From: a virus
Virus record (IMG/VR): IMGVR_UViG_3300036820_000009
Span: 1 to 64,000 of that record
Direction: 5' to 3' (one strand)
Length of the DNA stretch: 64,000 bases
Each line of letters opens with the position of its first letter. Position 1 is the stretch's first letter. The notes below the pieces were generated by a model. The model made no database searches, was not told where the DNA came from, and saw only the letters and a list, made by a program, of their open reading frames with translations. Of this stretch, positions 16,643-23,610 are shown piece after piece. The position numbers were made by a program, and so were the translations under genes.

Positions 16643-16777
16643 ATGTTATGTAGATATGATCATTCGCACCAATCACCGACCCGAGCGATAAGTTCGCAAG
16701 GGCGGCTACCCGCGTGCATGTCCATGTCGATCAATCCATGGGAAGCCACACAGGGGCAGGGGTCGAAGTCTATCTGA
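16643..16777 (+). CDS. putative attenuator leader peptide (44 aa)
   Basis: ATG 10 nt after the -10 box; 33 distinct codons; its 3' end overlaps the antiterminator arm. Confidence 0.65.
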   Translation: MLCRYDHSHQSPTRAISSQGRLPACMSMSINPWEATQGQGSKSI

Positions 16778-16799
16778 TCGACAGCGAGAGCGATCATAG

Positions 16800-17030: not shown

Positions 17031-17107
17031 GGGCTCGTAGCTCAAATGGGAGAGCGCCTGTTTTGCACACAGGAGGCAGCGGGTTCGATACCTCGCCGGG
17101 TCCACCA
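17031..17107 (+). tRNA. tRNA-Ala(TGC)
   Basis: Cloverleaf, G3:U70, encoded CCA. Confidence 0.93.
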
Positions 17108-17143
17108 TTTTCATTATGATTCGGGGGCACGCACGGAACGAAT

Positions 17144-17218
17144 GCGGAAGTAGCTCAGGGGTAGAGCGTAACCTTGCCAAGGTTGAGGTCGCGGGTCCGA
17201 CTCCCGTCTTCCGCTCCA
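17144..17218 (+). tRNA. tRNA-Gly(GCC)
   Basis: Loop TTGCCAA, U73, CCA. Confidence 0.9.
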
Positions 17219-17222
17219 ATTC

Positions 17223-17297
17223 GGGCGCTTAGCACAATGGCAGTGCGAGCCGCTCATAACGGTTTGGTCGACGGTTCGATTCCGTCAGCGCCTACCA
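17223..17297 (+). tRNA. tRNA-Ile2/Met(CAT)
   Basis: Loop CTCATAA; acceptor stem resembles the lysidine-type Ile2 tRNA. Confidence 0.85.
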
Positions 17298-17310
17298 ATC
17301 GATCGATTAA

Positions 17311-17387
17311 TGCGGGATGGACTGGAGCGGCGCCAGCACGGTCTCATAAGCCGTCTCACGCGGGTTCAAATCCCGCTCCCGCAACCA
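17311..17387 (+). tRNA. tRNA-Met(CAT)
   Basis: Loop CTCATAA, U1:A72, CCA. Confidence 0.85.
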
Positions 17388-17420
17388 ATCCGGAGGTCCG
17401 TGGTTCGAATCCACGCCGTG

Positions 17421-17497
17421 TGCGGGGTGGAGCAGACCGGTAGCTCGCAAGGCCCATAACCTTGAGGTCGGGGGTTCAAATCCCTCCCCCGCTCCCA
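17421..17497 (+). tRNA. tRNA-fMet-like (CAT)
   Basis: 1:72 mismatch, initiator-like TGCGGGGTGGAGCAG 5' end, loop CCCATAA. Confidence 0.85.
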
Positions 17498-17501
17498 ATT
17501 T

Positions 17502-17578
17502 GCCCAAGTAGCCTACGCGGTTCACGGCGTTGGTCTGAAAAACCAAAGATGTTCGTTCGACTCGAACCTTGGGCACCA
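17502..17578 (+). tRNA. tRNA-Phe(GAA)
   Basis: Loop CTGAAAA, CCA. Confidence 0.88.
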
Positions 17579-17584
17579 GAATTC

Positions 17585-17658
17585 GCGGCATTGAGCGTAT
17601 TGGCGACGCTCCAGCCTTCCAAGCTGGCGAGCCGGTTCGATTCCGGTATGCCGCTCCA
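17585..17658 (+). tRNA. tRNA-Gly(TCC)
   Basis: Loop CTTCCAA, U73. Confidence 0.88.
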
Positions 17659-17673
17659 AATCACACCGGATTT

Positions 17674-17749
17674 TTCGGCGTAGCTCAGCAGGTAGAGCAC
17701 CTGACTGTTAATCAGGGTGTCGCAGGTTCGAGCCCTGCCGCCGGAGCCA
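17674..17749 (+). tRNA. tRNA-Asn(GTT)
   Basis: Loop CTGTTAA, U1:A72, G73. Confidence 0.93.
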
Positions 17750-17759
17750 ATTCCATTTT

Positions 17760-17833
17760 ACCGGGCTAGCACAGTGGAAGTGCCGCGGACTCCAAACCCG
17801 CTAACAGGGGTTCGATTCCTCTGCCCGGTGCCA
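17760..17833 (+). tRNA. tRNA-Trp(CCA)
   Basis: Loop CTCCAAA, G73. Confidence 0.9.
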
Positions 17834-17838
17834 GCTTC

Positions 17839-17911
17839 GCGCCGTAAGCCAAATGGAGAGGCATCGGTCTGCAAAACCGAATAACAGGTTCGATACCTGG
17901 ACGGTGCTCCA
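17839..17911 (+). tRNA. tRNA-Cys(GCA)
   Basis: Loop CTGCAAA, U73. Confidence 0.88.
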
Positions 17912-17919
17912 ATTACCGT

Positions 17920-17996
17920 GGCGATCGTGGCGAAGTGGCTAACGCGGCCGACTGTGAATCGGCTATTCGGGAGTTCGATCCTCTCCGATCGCCCCA
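17920..17996 (+). tRNA. tRNA-His(GTG)
   Basis: Loop CTGTGAA, encoded G-1 and C73. Confidence 0.92.
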
Positions 17997-17998
17997 AT

Positions 17999-18074
17999 GC
18001 CCGGCTAGCTCAGCGGTAGAGCAGCGCTTTTGTAAAGCGAAGGTCGCGGGTTCGATTCCTCGCGCTGGGCTCCA
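17999..18074 (+). tRNA. tRNA-Thr(TGT)
   Basis: Loop TTTGTAA. Confidence 0.9.
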
Positions 18075-18084
18075 ATTCGATCGA

Positions 18085-18159
18085 TGCGGCTTACCTCAAT
18101 GGTAGAGGAACCGGCTCTGACCCGGTCTATCGTGGGTTCGATTCCCCGAGCCGCTGCCA
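18085..18159 (+). tRNA. tRNA-Gln(CTG)
   Basis: Loop CTCTGAC, G73. Confidence 0.87.
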
Positions 18160-18166
18160 GTTTCAT

Positions 18167-18244
18167 AGCGGTGTAGCTCAGTCCGGAAGAGCAGCGCGTT
18201 TTGAGCGCGCGGGTCGCAGGTTCAAATCCGTGCCACCGCTGCCA
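18167..18244 (+). tRNA. tRNA-Gln(TTG)
   Basis: Loop TTTTGAG, G73. Confidence 0.85.
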
Positions 18245-18250
18245 ATTCAT

Positions 18251-18325
18251 CGCGCGTTCGACTTCAGGGAGGTCACCGGTCCCTCAAACCGGTCAGGCAG
18301 GGTTCGATTCCCGCACGCGCGGCCA
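18251..18325 (+). tRNA. tRNA-Glu(CTC)
   Basis: Loop CCCTCAA (C33). Confidence 0.85.
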
Positions 18326-18330
18326 ATTTA

Positions 18331-18415
18331 GCGGACATGGCGAAATCGGTAGACGCGATGGACTTAAAATCCGTTGTCGAAAGGCGTGGGAGTTCGATTC
18401 TCCCTGTCCGCACCA
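18331..18415 (+). tRNA. tRNA-Leu(TAA)
   Basis: Loop CTTAAAA, long variable arm. Confidence 0.93.
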
Positions 18416-18419
18416 AATT

Positions 18420-18504
18420 GCGTAGGTGGCGAAACTGGTAGACGCGCACGACTCAGAATCGTGTGGCTTCGGTCATGAGAGTTCGAATCTCTCCCTGCGC
18501 ACCA
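18420..18504 (+). tRNA. tRNA-Leu(CAG)
   Basis: Loop CTCAGAA, long variable arm. Confidence 0.93.
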
Positions 18505-18511
18505 AACCTTT

Positions 18512-18596
18512 GTCCGCGTGGCGAAACTGGTAGACGCACTGGCTTGAGAGGCCAGCGCCGCAAGGCATGGAAGTTCGAGTCTTCTCGCGGACACCA
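18512..18596 (+). tRNA. tRNA-Leu(GAG)
   Basis: Loop TTGAGAG, long variable arm. Confidence 0.93.
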
Positions 18597-18603
18597 ACCT
18601 CTT

Positions 18604-18695
18604 GGGCGGTTGGCAGAGTGGTCGATTGCACCGCGTTGGAAACGCGGCATGCCCGTTCAAGGGTATCGCTCGTTCAAATCGAGCACCGCCCGCCA
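18604..18695 (+). tRNA. tRNA-Ser(GGA)
   Basis: Loop TTGGAAA, long variable arm, G73. Confidence 0.92.
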
Positions 18696-18714
18696 TTTAT
18701 GATATTATTCGAGG

Positions 18715-19245
18715 ATGACGAGCGGGCGAAGAGAGATTCGTCGCTTCATGGGGCAATTGTTTGCCGCGGCGATCTATTACGACGGCATCGGCGAATCGAA
18801 CCGCGCCGAGGATTGCCGCCAGCATGCGCGCACGGTGCTGATCAAATCGTCGGAATATCGCACGCCATGGGGCAGCATGACGCGCGCGGAGCTGCGCACG
18901 CTGCTGTCCGAAGAACAAAATCATCATTGCTGCTACTGCGGTTGCGAAATGACCGAGCCGCCGACCGATACCAGCTTGTCGCGACCGACCGATATCTCGA
19001 TCGAGCACATCATTCCGATATCGCATCAAGGTCCGCACGATTGGGAAAACACGGCCGCCTGTTGCTTCGCCTGCAATAATTCGCGGCCGTCAAATGTGCC
19101 GGCGCTGATCTATTGGGAATACCGATTGGAGATCCAGCGCGTGCGCCGCAAGCGCCGGCTGCGCGCGTCGCGCGCCAAGTATTACGAGCGGCCACGGCCG
19201 CCGCGCGCGACGATCGAGCTCGCCGGCATGCAGTTTCAGTTGTGA
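18715..19245 (+). CDS. HNH endonuclease inside the tRNA array
   Basis: QNHHCCYC..SIEHIIP..WENTAACCFACN. Confidence 0.85.
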   Translation: MTSGRREIRRFMGQLFAAAIYYDGIGESNRAEDCRQHARTVLIKSSEYRTPWGSMTRAELRTLLSEEQNHHCCYCGCEMTEPPTDTSLSRPTDISIEHIIPISHQGPHDWENTAACCFACNNSRPSNVPALIYWEYRLEIQRVRRKRRLRASRAKYYERPRPPRATIELAGMQFQL

Positions 19246-19333
19246 GGATGGGTGGCAGAGTGGACGATTGCGCCGGCCCCGAAAACCGGAGTGCTTCGCG
19301 GCACCGTGGGTTCAAATCCCACCCCATCCGCCA
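19246..19333 (+). tRNA. tRNA-Ser(CGA)
   Basis: Loop CCCGAAA (C33), long variable arm; starts right after the HNH stop. Confidence 0.9.
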
Positions 19334-19337
19334 AATT

Positions 19338-19426
19338 GGGTGCGTGGCAGAGCGGCTTATCGCAGCGGTCCTGAAAACCGCCGTGCCCCAAGGGCATCGG
19401 GAGTTCGAATCTCCCCGCACCCGCCA
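19338..19426 (+). tRNA. tRNA-Ser(TGA)
   Basis: Loop CCTGAAA (C33), long variable arm. Confidence 0.92.
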
Positions 19427-19440
19427 ATTCGAAGAGATAG

Positions 19441-19541
19441 TCAGGCCGGAGATACCGGGCCTGGCGAGGGACAGGAAGGCGGCGACCGGCCGCGCTCTCC
19501 AAAGGCAAATCCGAGAGCCTTCCTGTCCCGGCGCTTTTTTT
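19441..19541 (+). ncRNA. unidentified structured RNA or terminator-like element
   Basis: 13-bp perfect stem 19468-19480 / 19517-19529, upstream hairpin, T7 tract. Confidence 0.45.
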
Positions 19542-19633
19542 GGTGCCGTGGCAGAGTGGTCGATCGCGGTGGTTTGCTAAACCATTGATCGGCGAAATCC
19601 GATCCGGAGGTTCGAATCCTCCCGGCACCGCCA
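19542..19633 (+). tRNA. tRNA-Ser(GCT)
   Basis: Loop TTGCTAA, long variable arm. Confidence 0.92.
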
Positions 19634-19634
19634 A

Positions 19635-19663
19635 TTTGTACATGTTTGTACATGTTTGTACAT
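19635..19663 (+). repeat. tandem TTTGTACATG x3
   Basis: 10-bp unit containing the TGTACA palindrome. Confidence 0.9.
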
Positions 19664-19676
19664 TGAGGGACTTTCC

Positions 19677-19751
19677 GCCCGGTTGGCGCAGTGGTAGCGC
19701 AGCGCCTTGGTAAGGCACAGGTCATCGGTCCGATTCCGATACCGGGCTCCA
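19677..19751 (+). tRNA. tRNA-Thr(GGT)
   Basis: Loop TTGGTAA. Confidence 0.88.
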
Positions 19752-19758
19752 TATTTTT

Positions 19759-19842
19759 GCATCCGTGGGTGAGCGGCAAAACCGGCAGACTGTAAATCTG
19801 TTGCCTATGGCTACGAAGGTTCGAGTCCTTCCGGATGCACCA
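19759..19842 (+). tRNA. tRNA-Tyr(GTA)
   Basis: Loop CTGTAAA, variable arm. Confidence 0.92.
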
Positions 19843-19880
19843 CTCCGCACCATCATGCACGATGACGCATCATCATCCGT

Positions 19881-19955
19881 GTGCTCGTAGCTCAATGGCA
19901 GAGCAATCGCTCGATAAGCGATCGACGTAAGGTTCGATTCCTTCCGGGCATACCA
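19881..19955 (+). tRNA. tRNA-Ile(GAT)
   Basis: Loop TCGATAA (C33). Confidence 0.88.
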
Positions 19956-19962
19956 ATGATGC

Positions 19963-20040
19963 GCGCGCGTAGCTCAGCCAGGCCAGAGCCGCCGGCCCTT
20001 AACCGGTAGGTCGGGGGTTCGAATCCCTCCGCGCGCACCA
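19963..20040 (+). tRNA. tRNA-Lys(CTT)
   Basis: Loop CCCTTAA (C33). Confidence 0.9.
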
Positions 20041-20050
20041 ATTTGTGTTT

Positions 20051-20124
20051 GCTCCCATCTGTCAGCGGTAGGCAACCGGCTTGTCACGCCGGCAACAGCG
20101 GTTCGATTCCGCTTGGGAGCGCCA
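20051..20124 (+). tRNA. tRNA-Asp(GTC)
   Basis: Loop TTGTCAC, G73. Confidence 0.87.
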
Positions 20125-20201
20125 CGGGGTGTAGCTCAGTCTGGCAGAGCGCCTGCTTTGGGAGCAGGATGCCGGGGGTTCAAATCCTCTCGCCCCGACC
20201 A
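20125..20201 (+). tRNA. tRNA-Pro(TGG)
   Basis: C1:G72, loop TTTGGGA. Confidence 0.93.
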
Positions 20202-20204
20202 ATT

Positions 20205-20280
20205 GCCCGCGCAGCACGATCGGACGTGCATCCGAATCCTAGTCGGAAGGCTGCCAGTTCGAGCCTGGCCGTGGGCGCCA
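20205..20280 (+). tRNA. tRNA-Arg(CCT)
   Basis: Loop ATCCTAG (unusual A32). Confidence 0.83.
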
Positions 20281-20310
20281 TATTTTCCGGAATATATGCC
20301 ACAATTTTCC

Positions 20311-20460
20311 GGCATTAGGTAGCAAGCCTAGCGGCGTCTTGCCACGAAAAAGCCGGGGTTCGTGGCCCCGGCCTTTGTGGTAACCCGCAATGCTTGAACC
20401 ACCCTGCGGAGACTCAACGTACGCCTCAAAATAGTGATTATGGGGAAGAGGGTCAAGGCG
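20311..20460 (+). ncRNA. unidentified structured RNA
   Basis: Nested stems GCATT/AATGC, TAGGT/GCCTA, GCGG/CCGC, TTGCCACGAA/TTTGTGGTAA, GCCGGGG/CCCCGGC. Confidence 0.45.
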
Positions 20461-20468
20461 GCAATTTT

Positions 20469-20546
20469 CGGGGTATAGCTCAGCCTGGCAAGAGTGTTCG
20501 CTTCGGAAGCGAGAGATCGCTGGTTCAAATCCAGCTACCCCGACCA
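20469..20546 (+). tRNA. tRNA-Pro(CGG)
   Basis: C1:G72, loop TTCGGAA. Confidence 0.92.
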
Positions 20547-20585
20547 CTATCGCAATTTTGTTATATGATTTGCGTTATATGATTT

Positions 20586-20660
20586 GCTCCGTTAGCTCAG
20601 CGGCAGAGCGCCTGGCCTACACCCAGGATGTCGGCGGTTCAATTCCGTCACGGAGTACCA
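20586..20660 (+). tRNA. tRNA-Val(TAC)
   Basis: Loop CCTACAC (C33). Confidence 0.9.
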
Positions 20661-20662
20661 GC

Positions 20663-21196
20663 ATGTTGCCATCGATCGTGCCGCTCGCGTGTCTCGATGC
20701 CATGAGCGAGCTGGCGGCCGCGGCGCCGGCGGGCTGCTTTGTCGAGATCGGCGTTTACAAAGGCGGCTCGGCGCTGCGGCTCTACGAGATCGCGCTGCGC
20801 CAGGATCGCACGCTGCATCTCTTCGATACGTTCGCCGGCATGCCGATCGCAACATCGGCCGACCGCCATCAAATCGGCGATTTCGGCGACGTCGACCTGG
20901 ACACGATTCGCGCGGCGCTGCCAGCGGCGATTTTTCATGTCGGCGTCTATCCCGCCACGCATCCGCCCGACCTGCGCGATGTCGCGTTCATTCATTGCGA
21001 CTGCGATCAGTATGACAGCTATCAGGCGGTGATCCGCACGATGTACCCGCTGCTGGTGCCGCATGGCGTGCTGCTATTCGATGATTATTTCGATCTGCCG
21101 GGCGCGCGCCGCGCGATCGAGGAACATTTTCCGGCCAGCCGATTGATACCGACCGCCGGCGGCCGCTGCTACGTCAAAATGCCACGTTCTTACTAG
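20663..21196 (+). CDS. TylF/MycF-family sugar O-methyltransferase
   Basis: VEIGVYKGGS, LFDTFAGMP, FIHCDCDQY, LLFDDY. Confidence 0.85.
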   Translation: MLPSIVPLACLDAMSELAAAAPAGCFVEIGVYKGGSALRLYEIALRQDRTLHLFDTFAGMPIATSADRHQIGDFGDVDLDTIRAALPAAIFHVGVYPATHPPDLRDVAFIHCDCDQYDSYQAVIRTMYPLLVPHGVLLFDDYFDLPGARRAIEEHFPASRLIPTAGGRCYVKMPRSY

Positions 21197-21256
21197 CGGC
21201 CAGGTGGCTGGACCTTCACTCCAGAGACAGGGGTTCGAGTCCCCTACGTGGCACCA
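21181..21256 (+). tRNA. tRNA-Glu(TTC)
   Basis: GCCACGT/ACGTGGC acceptor, loop CCTTCAC; overlaps the TylF stop. Confidence 0.82.
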
Positions 21257-21265
21257 GTTTTCCCT

Positions 21266-21342
21266 GCGCCCTTAGCTCAACTGGATAGAGCGCCTGACTA
21301 CGGATCAGGAGGTTAGGGATTCGAGTTCTCTAGGGCGCGCCA
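21266..21342 (+). tRNA. tRNA-Arg(ACG)
   Basis: Loop CTACGGA. Confidence 0.92.
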
Positions 21343-21346
21343 ATTC

Positions 21347-21424
21347 GCTTCCGTAGCTCAGTCGGATTAGAGCAGCGGCCTTCTAAGCCGCGGGTCGCCG
21401 GTTCGATTCCGGCCGGGAGCACCA
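21347..21424 (+). tRNA. tRNA-Arg(TCT)
   Basis: Loop CTTCTAA. Confidence 0.93.
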
Positions 21425-21425
21425 T

Positions 21426-21502
21426 GCATCCGCAGCTCGACTGGACCGAGCGTCCGCCTCCGAAGCGGAAGATTGCGAGTTCGACTCTCGCCGGGTGCGC
21501 CA
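21426..21502 (+). tRNA. tRNA-Arg(CCG)
   Basis: Loop CTCCGAA. Confidence 0.9.
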
Positions 21503-21509
21503 ATTCGTT

Positions 21510-21594
21510 GCGCGGCTGGCGAAACTGGTAGACGCGCCGGTCTCAAAAACCGGTACCGAAAGGCATGCGGGTTCGATTCCCGCGCTGCGCACCA
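21510..21594 (+). tRNA. tRNA-Leu(CAA)
   Basis: Loop CTCAAAA, long variable arm. Confidence 0.93.
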
Positions 21595-21595
21595 A

Positions 21596-21671
21596 GGGTC
21601 CGTAACTCAGTCGGTAGAGTTCCCGGCTTTTAACCGGGATGTCGCGGGTTCGATCCCCGCCGGGCCTACCA
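21596..21671 (+). tRNA. tRNA-Lys(TTT)
   Basis: Loop CTTTTAA. Confidence 0.92.
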
Positions 21672-21675
21672 AATC

Positions 21676-21749
21676 GCCCTTGTAGCTCAGTGGCAGAGCA
21701 GCGTCCTCGTAAGGCGCCGATTTCGGTTCGATTCCGTGCAAGGGCTCCA
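21676..21749 (+). tRNA. tRNA-Thr(CGT)
   Basis: Loop CTCGTAA. Confidence 0.88.
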
Positions 21750-21797
21750 CTTGACTTCGATCGCCGGCTCGCGCATATAGCTCGCCAACAAGCATTT

Positions 21798-21872
21798 GCG
21801 TTGGTAGCTCAGCGGCAGAGCGGTCCACTCTAAAGGGACTGGTCGCAGGTTCGATCCCTGCCCGACGCGCCA
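21798..21872 (+). tRNA. amber suppressor tRNA (CTA)
   Basis: Canonical cloverleaf, stem GTCCA/GGGAC, loop CTCTAAA, short variable loop, G73, CCA. Confidence 0.88.
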
Positions 21873-21887
21873 AATTGAAGGTTCGAC

Positions 21888-22262
21888 ATGCTGTAGATTG
21901 ATTCGACCCTCCGTCTTTACGCTATTCTGCGCGGCGATCTCGACATGCCCGCAGGCAAGGCGGCCAGCCAGGCTGGCCACGCCTTCCTTGGATCCTTCCT
22001 CTCAGCTCCCACCGACGTTTCGCACCGCTATCAGGCCGATGGCGTGGGCACCAAGATCGTGCTCATGGCGCCCGGCGAGCCCGATTTGCGCGCCGCCTAT
22101 GACCAGGCGCGCGAAAGGGGCCTGCCGTGCGTTCTGGTGGCCGACAAAGGGCATGTCATGCCACCGGCGTTCACGGGTGCCCCGATCGTGACGGCCCTCG
22201 GAATCGGGCCCGCGCTGCGGCGCCAGGTGCGCGATATCACCGCGAGGTTTCCCTTGATGTAA
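21888..22262 (+). CDS. pth2: peptidyl-tRNA hydrolase Pth2-like, with in-frame TAG at codon 3
   Basis: RLYAILRGDLDMPAGKAASQAGHA..KIVL..VADKG..TALGIGP; GAAGG-6nt-ATG CTG TAG in frame. Confidence 0.8.
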
Positions 22263-22267
22263 TTCAA

Positions 22268-22348
22268 TCCGGGGTAGCTCAGCGGTCAGAGCGGCTGGCT
22301 TCGCAAGAGGCCGGCAGATCGGAAGTTCGAATCTTCCCCCCGGAGCCA
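22268..22348 (+). ncRNA. tRNA-like RNA without an anticodon loop
   Basis: Normal acceptor (TCCGGGG/CCCCGGA-GCCA), D and T arms; anticodon arm is a 9-bp stem with a GCAA tetraloop. Confidence 0.8.
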
Positions 22349-22369: not shown

Positions 22370-22975
22370 ATGTCCAGCGTGCTCACCAAGGAACGAAGGC
22401 CGACGCGGACCCTCGTACTCAATGCCGACTACCTGCCGCTCTCGACCTGGCCGCCCTCGCTGATTTCCTGCGAGAACGCGGTGCATGCGCTGTACCGCGA
22501 CCGCGTCACGGTGGTCGATACCTGGCCGGGCTACTTCATGCGGTCGCCCTCGGTATCGATCCCGGTGCCGCGGATCGTGGCGCTGCGCCATTACGCGCCG
22601 GTCGCCGGCGAACCGAAATTCTGCCGGCGATCGGTCTATCTGCGCGATCGCTACCGCTGTCAGTATTGCGGCGCGCCATTCCCGACCGAAGAGCTGACGC
22701 TCGATCATGTGATCCCGCGCGCCAATGGCGGCAAAACGGTGTGGGAGAACATCCTGGCGTGCTGCGTCGGCTGCAATTCCAAGAAGGGCCACAAGCCGGC
22801 TAATTTCAGCGGCCGGCGCGGCGTGGTCGGCGCCGATGGCAGCATGCGGCCGCTGAAACAGCCACGACGGCCGACGCGCGCCGAGCTGCTGCGCGCGGGA
22901 CTTGAATTATTGCCCGCTGACATCAAGAATGATTTTGGCGATTGGCTCTATTGGGACGCTGAATTGCAGCCTTGA
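22370..22975 (+). CDS. HNH endonuclease (McrA-like, LVLNAxY type)
   Basis: TLVLNADYLPL..RDRYRCQYCG..LTLDHVIPRANGG..WENILACCVGCNSKKG. Confidence 0.9.
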   Translation: MSSVLTKERRPTRTLVLNADYLPLSTWPPSLISCENAVHALYRDRVTVVDTWPGYFMRSPSVSIPVPRIVALRHYAPVAGEPKFCRRSVYLRDRYRCQYCGAPFPTEELTLDHVIPRANGGKTVWENILACCVGCNSKKGHKPANFSGRRGVVGADGSMRPLKQPRRPTRAELLRAGLELLPADIKNDFGDWLYWDAELQP

Positions 22976-23610
22976 TGTCGATTCGCGAGCATTTCACCCT
23001 CAGCGGCGCCGCGATCGCCGCGGCGCTGCTCGACGAAGAGCTGGAAGCGGCCGCCGCGCATGCCGCCGACACGATGGCGCAATGCCTGATCGCCGACGGC
23101 AAGATCCTGCTCGCGGGCAATGGCGGCAGCGCCGCCGGCGCGCAGCACATCGCCGGCGAGCTCATGGGCAATCTCAATTTTCCGCGGCCGGCGCTGCCGG
23201 CGATCGCGCTGACGGCCGACAGCGCGGTGCTGACCGCGCTGGCCAATGATTTCGGCTACGATTGGGCGATCGCGCGGCAGATCGAGGCACTCGGCATGAT
23301 CGGCGACATTTTCATCGGGCTATCGACATCGGGCAATTCGTCCAACATCATCCAGGGGCTCAAGCGCGCGCGGCAGCTTGGCTTGACCACCATCGGCATG
23401 ACCGGCCGCAGCGGCGGCGCGATGCTGCCTCTCTGCGATATCTGCCTGCGCGTGCCATCGCACCGCACTTCGCTGATCCAGGAAGTTCATCTTGTCGTCG
23501 CGCATGCCATCTGCGCGCAGGTCGAGGCCGCGCTTTTTAGCCCGGTCGAGAATATAGCCAGCCCTCCGCATGGTGCGGATCCGGCTCGCGGGTCCAGCCC
23601 AGCCGCGTAA
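22972..23610 (+). CDS. gmhA: phosphoheptose isomerase (SIS domain)
   Basis: GNGGSAA.AQHIA.EL, LTALANDFGY, STSGNSSN, IQEVH. Confidence 0.92.
   Translation: MMSIREHFTLSGAAIAAALLDEELEAAAAHAADTMAQCLIADGKILLAGNGGSAAGAQHIAGELMGNLNFPRPALPAIALTADSAVLTALANDFGYDWAIARQIEALGMIGDIFIGLSTSGNSSNIIQGLKRARQLGLTTIGMTGRSGGAMLPLCDICLRVPSHRTSLIQEVHLVVAHAICAQVEAALFSPVENIASPPHGADPARGSSPAA

Follow-up and report, generated by a model that had tools for sequence, protein, structure and literature searches.

A phage gene for a predicted peptidyl-tRNA hydrolase, Pth2, appears to be held behind a translational lock whose key is encoded immediately upstream: it is very probable that full-length Pth2 is made only when an amber suppressor tRNA reads through an early UAG, the third codon of the gene. 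Read-through, on which the original prediction had already made full-length Pth2 depend, is supported because no alternative start exists upstream of the first strand of the protein, because the early stop (the gate) is conserved across distant phages with the stop codon covarying with the suppressor anticodon, and because in two relatives a gate in which the short ORF is shifted by +1 pairs with a tRNA that carries an 8-nt loop containing UCUA. This comparative evidence is strong and forms the decisive part of the support for a read-through gate. With an early stop after a short ORF, no canonical start and a matching suppressor, the locus typifies a device that is widespread and apparently unpublished, here in the form with the tRNA next to the gene; a full-text literature search found no published description of a stop-gated Pth2.

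The suppressor tRNA and Pth2 locus

The window, that is the whole 64-kb stretch of DNA analysed here, is the first part of a virus record of 93,725 bp, which is complete, has direct terminal repeats and shows a G+C content of 60.7%. Its virus is an ordinary tailed phage, as judged from such genes as those for baseplate J, a VapE-type primase and a tail tube initiator; no release-factor gene was found in the phage genome, and a similarity search of the locus DNA against cultured phages returned matches at the tRNA level only. ARAGORN called 40 tRNA genes on a single strand (17031-22348), a total that counts the tRNA-like RNA described below, and 38 of them are sense tRNAs that form an array on the plus strand (17031-21749) upstream of the suppressor tRNA. 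The array is split by a gene for a TylF-type methyltransferase (20558-21196), whose TAG stop overlaps a tRNA-Glu. Since no promoter-like or terminator-like site was found from about 21200, in the 3' part of the array, through to Pth2, the gene is probably co-transcribed with the array, and would then lie inside a tRNA transcript.

The suppressor tRNA, with anticodon CUA, occupies positions 21798-21872 of the plus strand (75 nt; called by ARAGORN, Rfam RF00005 at 59.2 bits) and has the anticodon loop CU-CUA-AA, an encoded CCA and discriminator G73. Suppressor tRNAs are diverse between phages, and the best similarity of this one to the other 38 tRNAs of the phage, 76% to tRNA-Asn, is uninformative for its amino-acid identity. 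The tRNA shares the strand of the gene and ends 15 nt short of an ATG at 21888 and 21 nt short of the TAG, and the sequence that follows reads as a Shine-Dalgarno-like GAAGG (21877-21881), 6 nt (TTCGAC) and then the start and gate, Met-Leu-amber (21888-21896, plus strand). The ATG, the CTG at 21891, the TAG at 21894-21896 (next base A) and the ATT at 21897 all share the frame of an ORF closed by TAA 22260-22262. The Pth2 gene body after the TAG comprises 121 codons plus the TAA (21897-22262, plus strand; Pfam PF01981, E 1.2e-17). For the tRNA, the GAAGG, the ATG-CTG-TAG and the frame they share with Pth2, every coordinate in the original prediction proved exact when compared with the sequence and the ARAGORN and Rfam calls. 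Its observation that the only in-frame ATG with a Shine-Dalgarno motif precedes the TAG held equally: the sole in-frame ATG of the window locus with a ribosome-binding site is that at 21888, and the interval from the TAG to strand 1 contains no ATG, GTG or TTG. The mechanical ORF list opens the gene at an internal Met, residue 17 after the TAG (21945-21947, plus strand), as does the public protein P0001 (105 aa).

By profile, motif and modelled fold the window ORF is a Pth2, a predicted peptidyl-tRNA hydrolase. The PF01981 (PTH2) profile matched at 64.6 bits, against a cut-off of 23, with profile positions 2-114 of 115 aligned to residues 6-120 after the TAG. An AlphaFold2 model (pLDDT 91.9) placed β-strand 1 at residues 5-12 (LRLYAILR; 21909-21932, plus strand), and Foldseek superposed this model on the solved Pth2 2zv3 (TM 0.86/0.90, rmsd 1.7 Å) as well as on 3erj, 1q7s, 1wn2 and 1xty, the TM values being 0.8-0.9 over the set that includes 2zv3. 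When a profile of the clade was compared with solved Pth2 chains, 2zv3 was matched with an E value of 3.7e-21 from crystal-chain residue 4, and the solved chains start merely about 3 residues ahead of strand 1. The GKxxAQxxHA motif is present, with K21, Q25 and H28 invariant in the clade alignment, and the segment VADKGH aligns with RDAGHT of 2zv3, its acidic position being D or E throughout the clade; the Lys of the motif and the acidic residue of a D-x-G-H/T motif were reportedly identified as catalytic in Pth2 by Fromant et al. in 2005. The original prediction had taken the residues upstream of Met 21945 for the first strand of Pth2, and both the profile alignment, which begins well upstream of that Met, and the model agree with it. 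A product starting at 21945 would, on this model, lack β-strand 1.

Conservation of the early stop and of the matching suppressor

A profile search returned 67 viral loci, of which 57 fall in this Pth2 clade and, together with the window, make up the 58 loci analysed. At about 50 of the 58 viral loci (relatives at 40-60% identity) Pth2 is preceded by a short ORF that runs into an early in-frame stop, a recurrence well beyond what chance would give; the nearest upstream in-frame stop is TAG in 49 of the 58, and a Shine-Dalgarno-like motif lies ahead of the ATG of the short ORF in nearly all relatives. At least 35 of the gated viral loci lack a canonical start in the interval from the stop to strand 1; in 16 relatives the gates are ambiguous, since a TTG, GTG or ATG that might serve as a start is found near strand 1. 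Applied to 66 archaeal Pth2 loci as a control, the same script flagged none of them (0/66), all 66 having an ordinary start in the interval. Six close viral relatives (51-55% identity) show the pattern in detail: five of them have an ATG-led short ORF of 2-7 codons, a TAG and then Pth2, with a mostly clear ribosome-binding site and, in each of the five, a tRNA-CUA within about 100 nt of the gene. On the FastTree phylogeny the window locus belongs to a clade with 96% support, made up of seven TAG-gated loci that all have a tRNA-CUA within 100 nt.

A purine directly follows the stop in 48 of 50 non-redundant gates, where the first codon positions of the same genes would lead one to expect 61% (naive binomial p 8.5e-9, a value that ignores the kinship of the loci). 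This bias fits efficient suppression: purines following UAG are said to favour suppression in E. coli, according to Bossi and to Miller and Albertini, both in 1983. The peptide encoded ahead of the gate is alike across several clades (MLTNSFL, MNNTFT, MTAFT, SSDFT and ANSFT, each running up to the stop; similar peptides are found at L035, L040, L042-L044, L047, L048, L063, L039, L029, L054 and L045), which suggests, at the level of sequence, that selection acts on the leader peptide itself. The gates of two loci, L050 and L051, are double, since strand 1 is preceded by two in-frame TAGs (MNTNTNS, VPDT and AQE... in the former and MMDIS, IKPET and VDE... in the latter, separated by the stops).

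As expected from the original prediction, an early TAG co-occurs with a tRNA-CUA in homologues: this is so in 38 TAG-gated records, in which the tRNA lies beside the gene, up to 2.5 kb away or at another site of the genome (the last in G001, G010, G012, G015, G017, G019, G020, G021, G022, G027 and Sinorhizobium phage Phosso). Three records combine a TGA gate with a tRNA-UCA, namely G006 and G008, in each of which the tRNA is about 4 kb away, and Agrobacterium phage Atu_ph07. One record, G024, combines a TAA gate with an adjacent tRNA-UUA, which is the only tRNA detected in this 203-kb record. Among the gated loci examined, no record carrying only a mismatched suppressor was seen. On the FastTree tree of Pth2 proteins, many forks of which are weakly supported, TGA arose twice and TAA once, each within TAG clades, so that the switches of gate and anticodon, as read from this tree, are three independent matched events.

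The ochre suppressor tRNA (UUA) of G024 lies at L054/L127 (G024:167858-167929), 112 nt upstream of the TAA-gated Pth2. Since this pair occurs without a tRNA array, the tRNA and Pth2 appear to form a self-contained module rather than a sensor of the whole array. A tRNA-CUA was not found in ten TAG-gated records, nine of which are 6-82% complete according to CheckV. G005 (543 kb, CheckV complete, 66 tRNAs called) has no tRNA-CUA among the tRNA-family matches listed, and shows one partial tRNA-like match with an AUC anticodon. ARAGORN misses odd tRNAs, an example being an uncalled tRNA-like sequence in L013 that has a UUCUAAA loop and lies about 45 nt upstream of the ribosome-binding site.

In the cultured phages Atu_ph07 (L075, MF403008.1) and Phosso (L076, PV764938.1) GenBank annotates Pth2 from an internal Met, at locus 1537-1869 in both, leaving out strand 1; the CDS of Atu_ph07 (AUZ95035.1) is labelled hypothetical. 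The true start of the gene is likely the ATG at locus 1420 in Atu_ph07, followed by a TGA gate at 1438, and likewise the ATG at locus 1375 in Phosso, followed by a TAG gate at 1384. In Atu_ph07 the tRNA with the UCA anticodon is the sole suppressor tRNA of the phage (PMC6102473).

What appears to be the strongest single argument for the tRNA carrying the ribosome over the gate comes from two loci, L032 and L058, in which the short ORF is shifted by +1 and joins Pth2 only when UAGA is read as one codon (ATG TTG TAGA TGT GAC in L032; ATG ACC TCA TAGA TGC GAT in L058). Both have a tRNA with an 8-nt anticodon loop upstream, reading CC-UCUA-AU in L032 (L032:2273-2346, 98 nt upstream) and AU-UCUA-AA in L058 (L058:2281-2357, 123 nt upstream), and the two loci look like natural four-base gates. 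L012 (G003) and L056 are candidates for further +1 gates, since their Pth2 leaders require a +1 shift at CAG-UAG-G (UAGG) and a shift at UAGC, respectively. No matching tRNA was found for either gate, and at L056 no tRNA was found at all; the only tRNA on the 41-kb fragment of L012 (L206:1501-1578) has the loop CGCCUAA, with G at position 33, and this loop holds CCUA, the complement of UAGG.

Other accounts of the in-frame stop

The suppressor would be irrelevant if ribosomes terminated after Met-Leu and restarted at AUU 21897, or used this AUU as a plain start. AUU is a rare bacterial start codon, used for example by infC, and in about 18 of 50 gates the codon after the stop is ATT or ATC. 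The window locus is one of them, and its ATT is a weak non-canonical start at which some reinitiation, or a low level of initiation independent of the suppressor, is possible. We nonetheless consider this account unlikely: GAAGG stands 15 nt from the ATT versus 6 nt from the ATG, and the codon after the stop is non-initiating in most relatives (GAA, GTT, AAC, GAC, GAT, ACT, GCT or AAG). Reinitiation moreover predicts neither the covariation of stop and anticodon nor the pairing of UAGA with 8-nt loops, and it fails for L032 and L058 because there the short ORF and Pth2 join only via UAGA. A start at the internal Met (ATG 21945), with the upstream region and its TAG serving as an untranslated leader, would require that a stretch conserved at the protein level in all relatives, the residues from the stop to that Met (LRLYAIxRxDL), be left untranslated. 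It would also yield a product without β-strand 1 of the Pth2 fold, from a codon that has no ribosome-binding site ahead of it. This start is the one chosen by gene callers here and in many homologues of 105-106 aa, and the one that GenBank gives for the Atu_ph07 and Phosso genes, but we regard it as quite improbable.

It is highly improbable that the whole phage is TAG-recoded in the manner of code 15, with the TAG of Pth2 as one among many sense TAGs, although the phage does encode a tRNA-CUA, as recoded phages do (10.1101/2021.08.26.457843). That phage-encoded suppressor is a trait it shares with them; the many in-frame stops and fragmented code 11 calls of such phages were not found. Among 118 ORFs judged coding-like by a GC3-based screen, TAG is the stop of about 28 (about 24%), TAA of 29 and TGA of 61, long genes run uninterrupted under code 11, and no further in-frame TAG was found within coding sequence. 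TAGs with coding signal on both sides turned out to be antisense-frame artefacts or gene junctions only, at a rate like that of TAA and TGA. In Atu_ph07, whose version of the device is built on TGA, many genes nevertheless end in TGA (PMC6102473). A scan of the window's genome for a second gated gene (ATG, at most 12 codons, a stop and a coding-like ORF) found only Pth2, the remaining matches being antisense-frame artefacts or ordinary gene junctions. Read-through fusions of TAG-ended genes with an in-frame next gene (43946, 41811 and 30052, minus strand) were considered and set aside, being no commoner than for TAA or TGA. Finally, the window comes from a single metagenome-derived record, in which the TAG could be a sequencing or assembly error or the gene a decaying pseudogene. 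An error is very unlikely because the stop is conserved across relatives, its position being shared by dozens of independent assemblies that include the cultured Atu_ph07 and Phosso, and the remainder of the gene is intact with clear conservation at the protein level; we give practically no credence to either possibility.

Related systems and possible roles

In the read-through mechanism that we favour, the Pth2 message would be part of the tRNA-array transcript, flanked by the suppressor tRNA and the tRNA-like RNA. Ribosomes would initiate at AUG 21888 via GAAGG, make fMet-Leu and reach the UAG as codon 3. If release factor 1 won there, only the dipeptide would result; if the charged phage tRNA(CUA) won, an in-frame Pth2 of 124 residues would be made, with its first β-strand intact. 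The output of Pth2 would in that case track the balance between active suppressor tRNA and release factor, and the idea in the original prediction that competition with RF1 makes Pth2 a reporter of release-factor activity is plausible. As to why a hydrolase should be controlled in this way, we would suggest, with low confidence, that the supply of Pth2 is coupled to the activity of a tRNA whose action brings about both read-through and abortive translation. Another possibility is that a hydrolase that might do harm is kept off until the tRNA machinery of the phage works.

Several known systems resemble the gated Pth2 in part. The gene for release factor 2, prfB, is autoregulated by an early in-frame UGA that is escaped by +1 frameshifting without a special tRNA. 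In both cases an early in-frame stop ties output to the efficiency of stop recognition; in prfB, however, the product itself reads the stop, whereas the gated Pth2 has a dedicated tRNA and its product is a hydrolase. The bar minigenes of phage lambda, reportedly linked to peptidyl-tRNA drop-off by Guarneros and colleagues, likewise consist of a ribosome-binding site, an AUG, one sense codon and a stop, and have a conceptual link to Pth. Those minigenes are free-standing, whereas the short ORF of Pth2 runs in frame into a conserved protein, and the window locus accordingly has no stand-alone ORF of two to three codons. Its length in relatives varies from 2 to 23 codons (23 in the leader of L027), and the part of the original prediction in which a Met-Leu minigene feeds Pth through drop-off was thus not borne out as a conserved property.

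Recoded phages, such as the crAss-like and Lak phages (Borges et al.; 10.1101/2021.08.26.457843), also encode a suppressor tRNA that decodes in-frame stops, for which timing control has been proposed. There many genes, chiefly those for late functions and lysis, carry numerous in-frame stops, and the coding density collapses when code 11 is applied, whereas the window phage keeps the standard code and has one gene with one stop, at codon 3, beside the tRNA. The preprint on stop recoding does not mention Pth or a hydrolase, and a survey of jumbo phages noted PTH2 in phages but not the gate (PMC7824862). Quadruplet-decoding tRNAs (sufD, sufJ, SufB2 and the evolved UAGN decoders of PMC4764823) are mutants or engineered; L032 and L058 share the UAGA codon and the 8-nt UCUA loop with the engineered systems (PMC4764823) but look natural and conserved, and compared with them the window locus is the ordinary three-base version.

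Atu_ph07 (PMC6102473) and XacN1 (PMC5852040) are standard-code phages that have a suppressor tRNA without a known target, and the targets of the two CUA tRNAs of XacN1 could not be identified by its authors (PMC5852040). Atu_ph07 differs in that its TGA-gated Pth2 (AUZ95035.1) offers a concrete target for the tRNA-UCA. The Pth of XacN1 was considered as a gated target and rejected: it is only distantly homologous, starts at an ordinary ATG, has no gate and so does not account for the suppressors of that phage.

If the read-through reading is right, the gated Pth2 would be a natural single-gene genetic-code lock, in which one tRNA opens one gene, and would provide a concrete target for the 'orphan' suppressor tRNAs of standard-code phages, a question left open in the Atu_ph07 and XacN1 papers. 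The key varies (UAG, UGA, UAA, and UAGA with an 8-base loop), and the last of these may be natural four-base decoding. Annotation would also need correcting, since many phage Pth2 genes would be about 16 or more residues too short or are labelled hypothetical. For genetics, cultured pairs are at hand in Atu_ph07 with Agrobacterium tumefaciens C58 and in Phosso with Sinorhizobium meliloti.

A tRNA-like RNA (22268-22348, plus strand; ARAGORN, Rfam at 55 bits, RNAfold) begins 5 nt past the Pth2 stop and may belong to the same module as the gated gene. Its acceptor (U1:A72, G73, CCA), D arm and T arm are normal, but where the anticodon arm would be there is a 9-bp helix closed by a GCAA tetraloop. 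A similar design, an 8-bp helix with GUAA, GGAA or GCAA, is found beside Pth2 in L017, L018 and L049, where the acceptor begins with UCC or UCU, and in L026 a related tRNA-like RNA lies 319 nt downstream. It is conceivable, though doubtful, that the suppressor tRNA, the locked Pth2 and this anticodon-less tRNA-like RNA make up a self-contained feedback circuit that limits read-through. In such a circuit the target of Pth2 would be either the suppressor tRNA or the tRNA-like RNA, which the enzyme might, for instance, deacylate. Read-through would in this way yield an enzyme that holds read-through back, and decoding in the infected cell would be under feedback control by a device whose key may have diversified naturally to all three stop codons and a four-base codon. 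Directly 3' of the tRNA-like RNA are an HNH endonuclease gene (window 22370-22975; PF14279 and PF01844) and then a SIS-domain gene (window 22972-23610).

A leader ORF before the tRNA array contains TGTAGATATGATCATTCGCAC (window 16644-16670), which resembles the Pth2 gate TGTAGATTGATTCGAC (21890-21907), possibly by chance. An out-of-frame ATG-TAG is present at 16648-16653 within this ORF, and the upstream leader as a whole (16644-16778) showed no clear relation to the Pth2 gate. Related Pth2 genes, whose start site is ambiguous, occur on Pseudomonas megaplasmids of about 1 Mb (L209, L214 and L218). Two contigs of Verrucomicrobia MAGs (L212 and L215) carry a TAG-gated Pth2, with M..AMT before the stop and V.DPILRLY after it, together with an adjacent tRNA-CUA.
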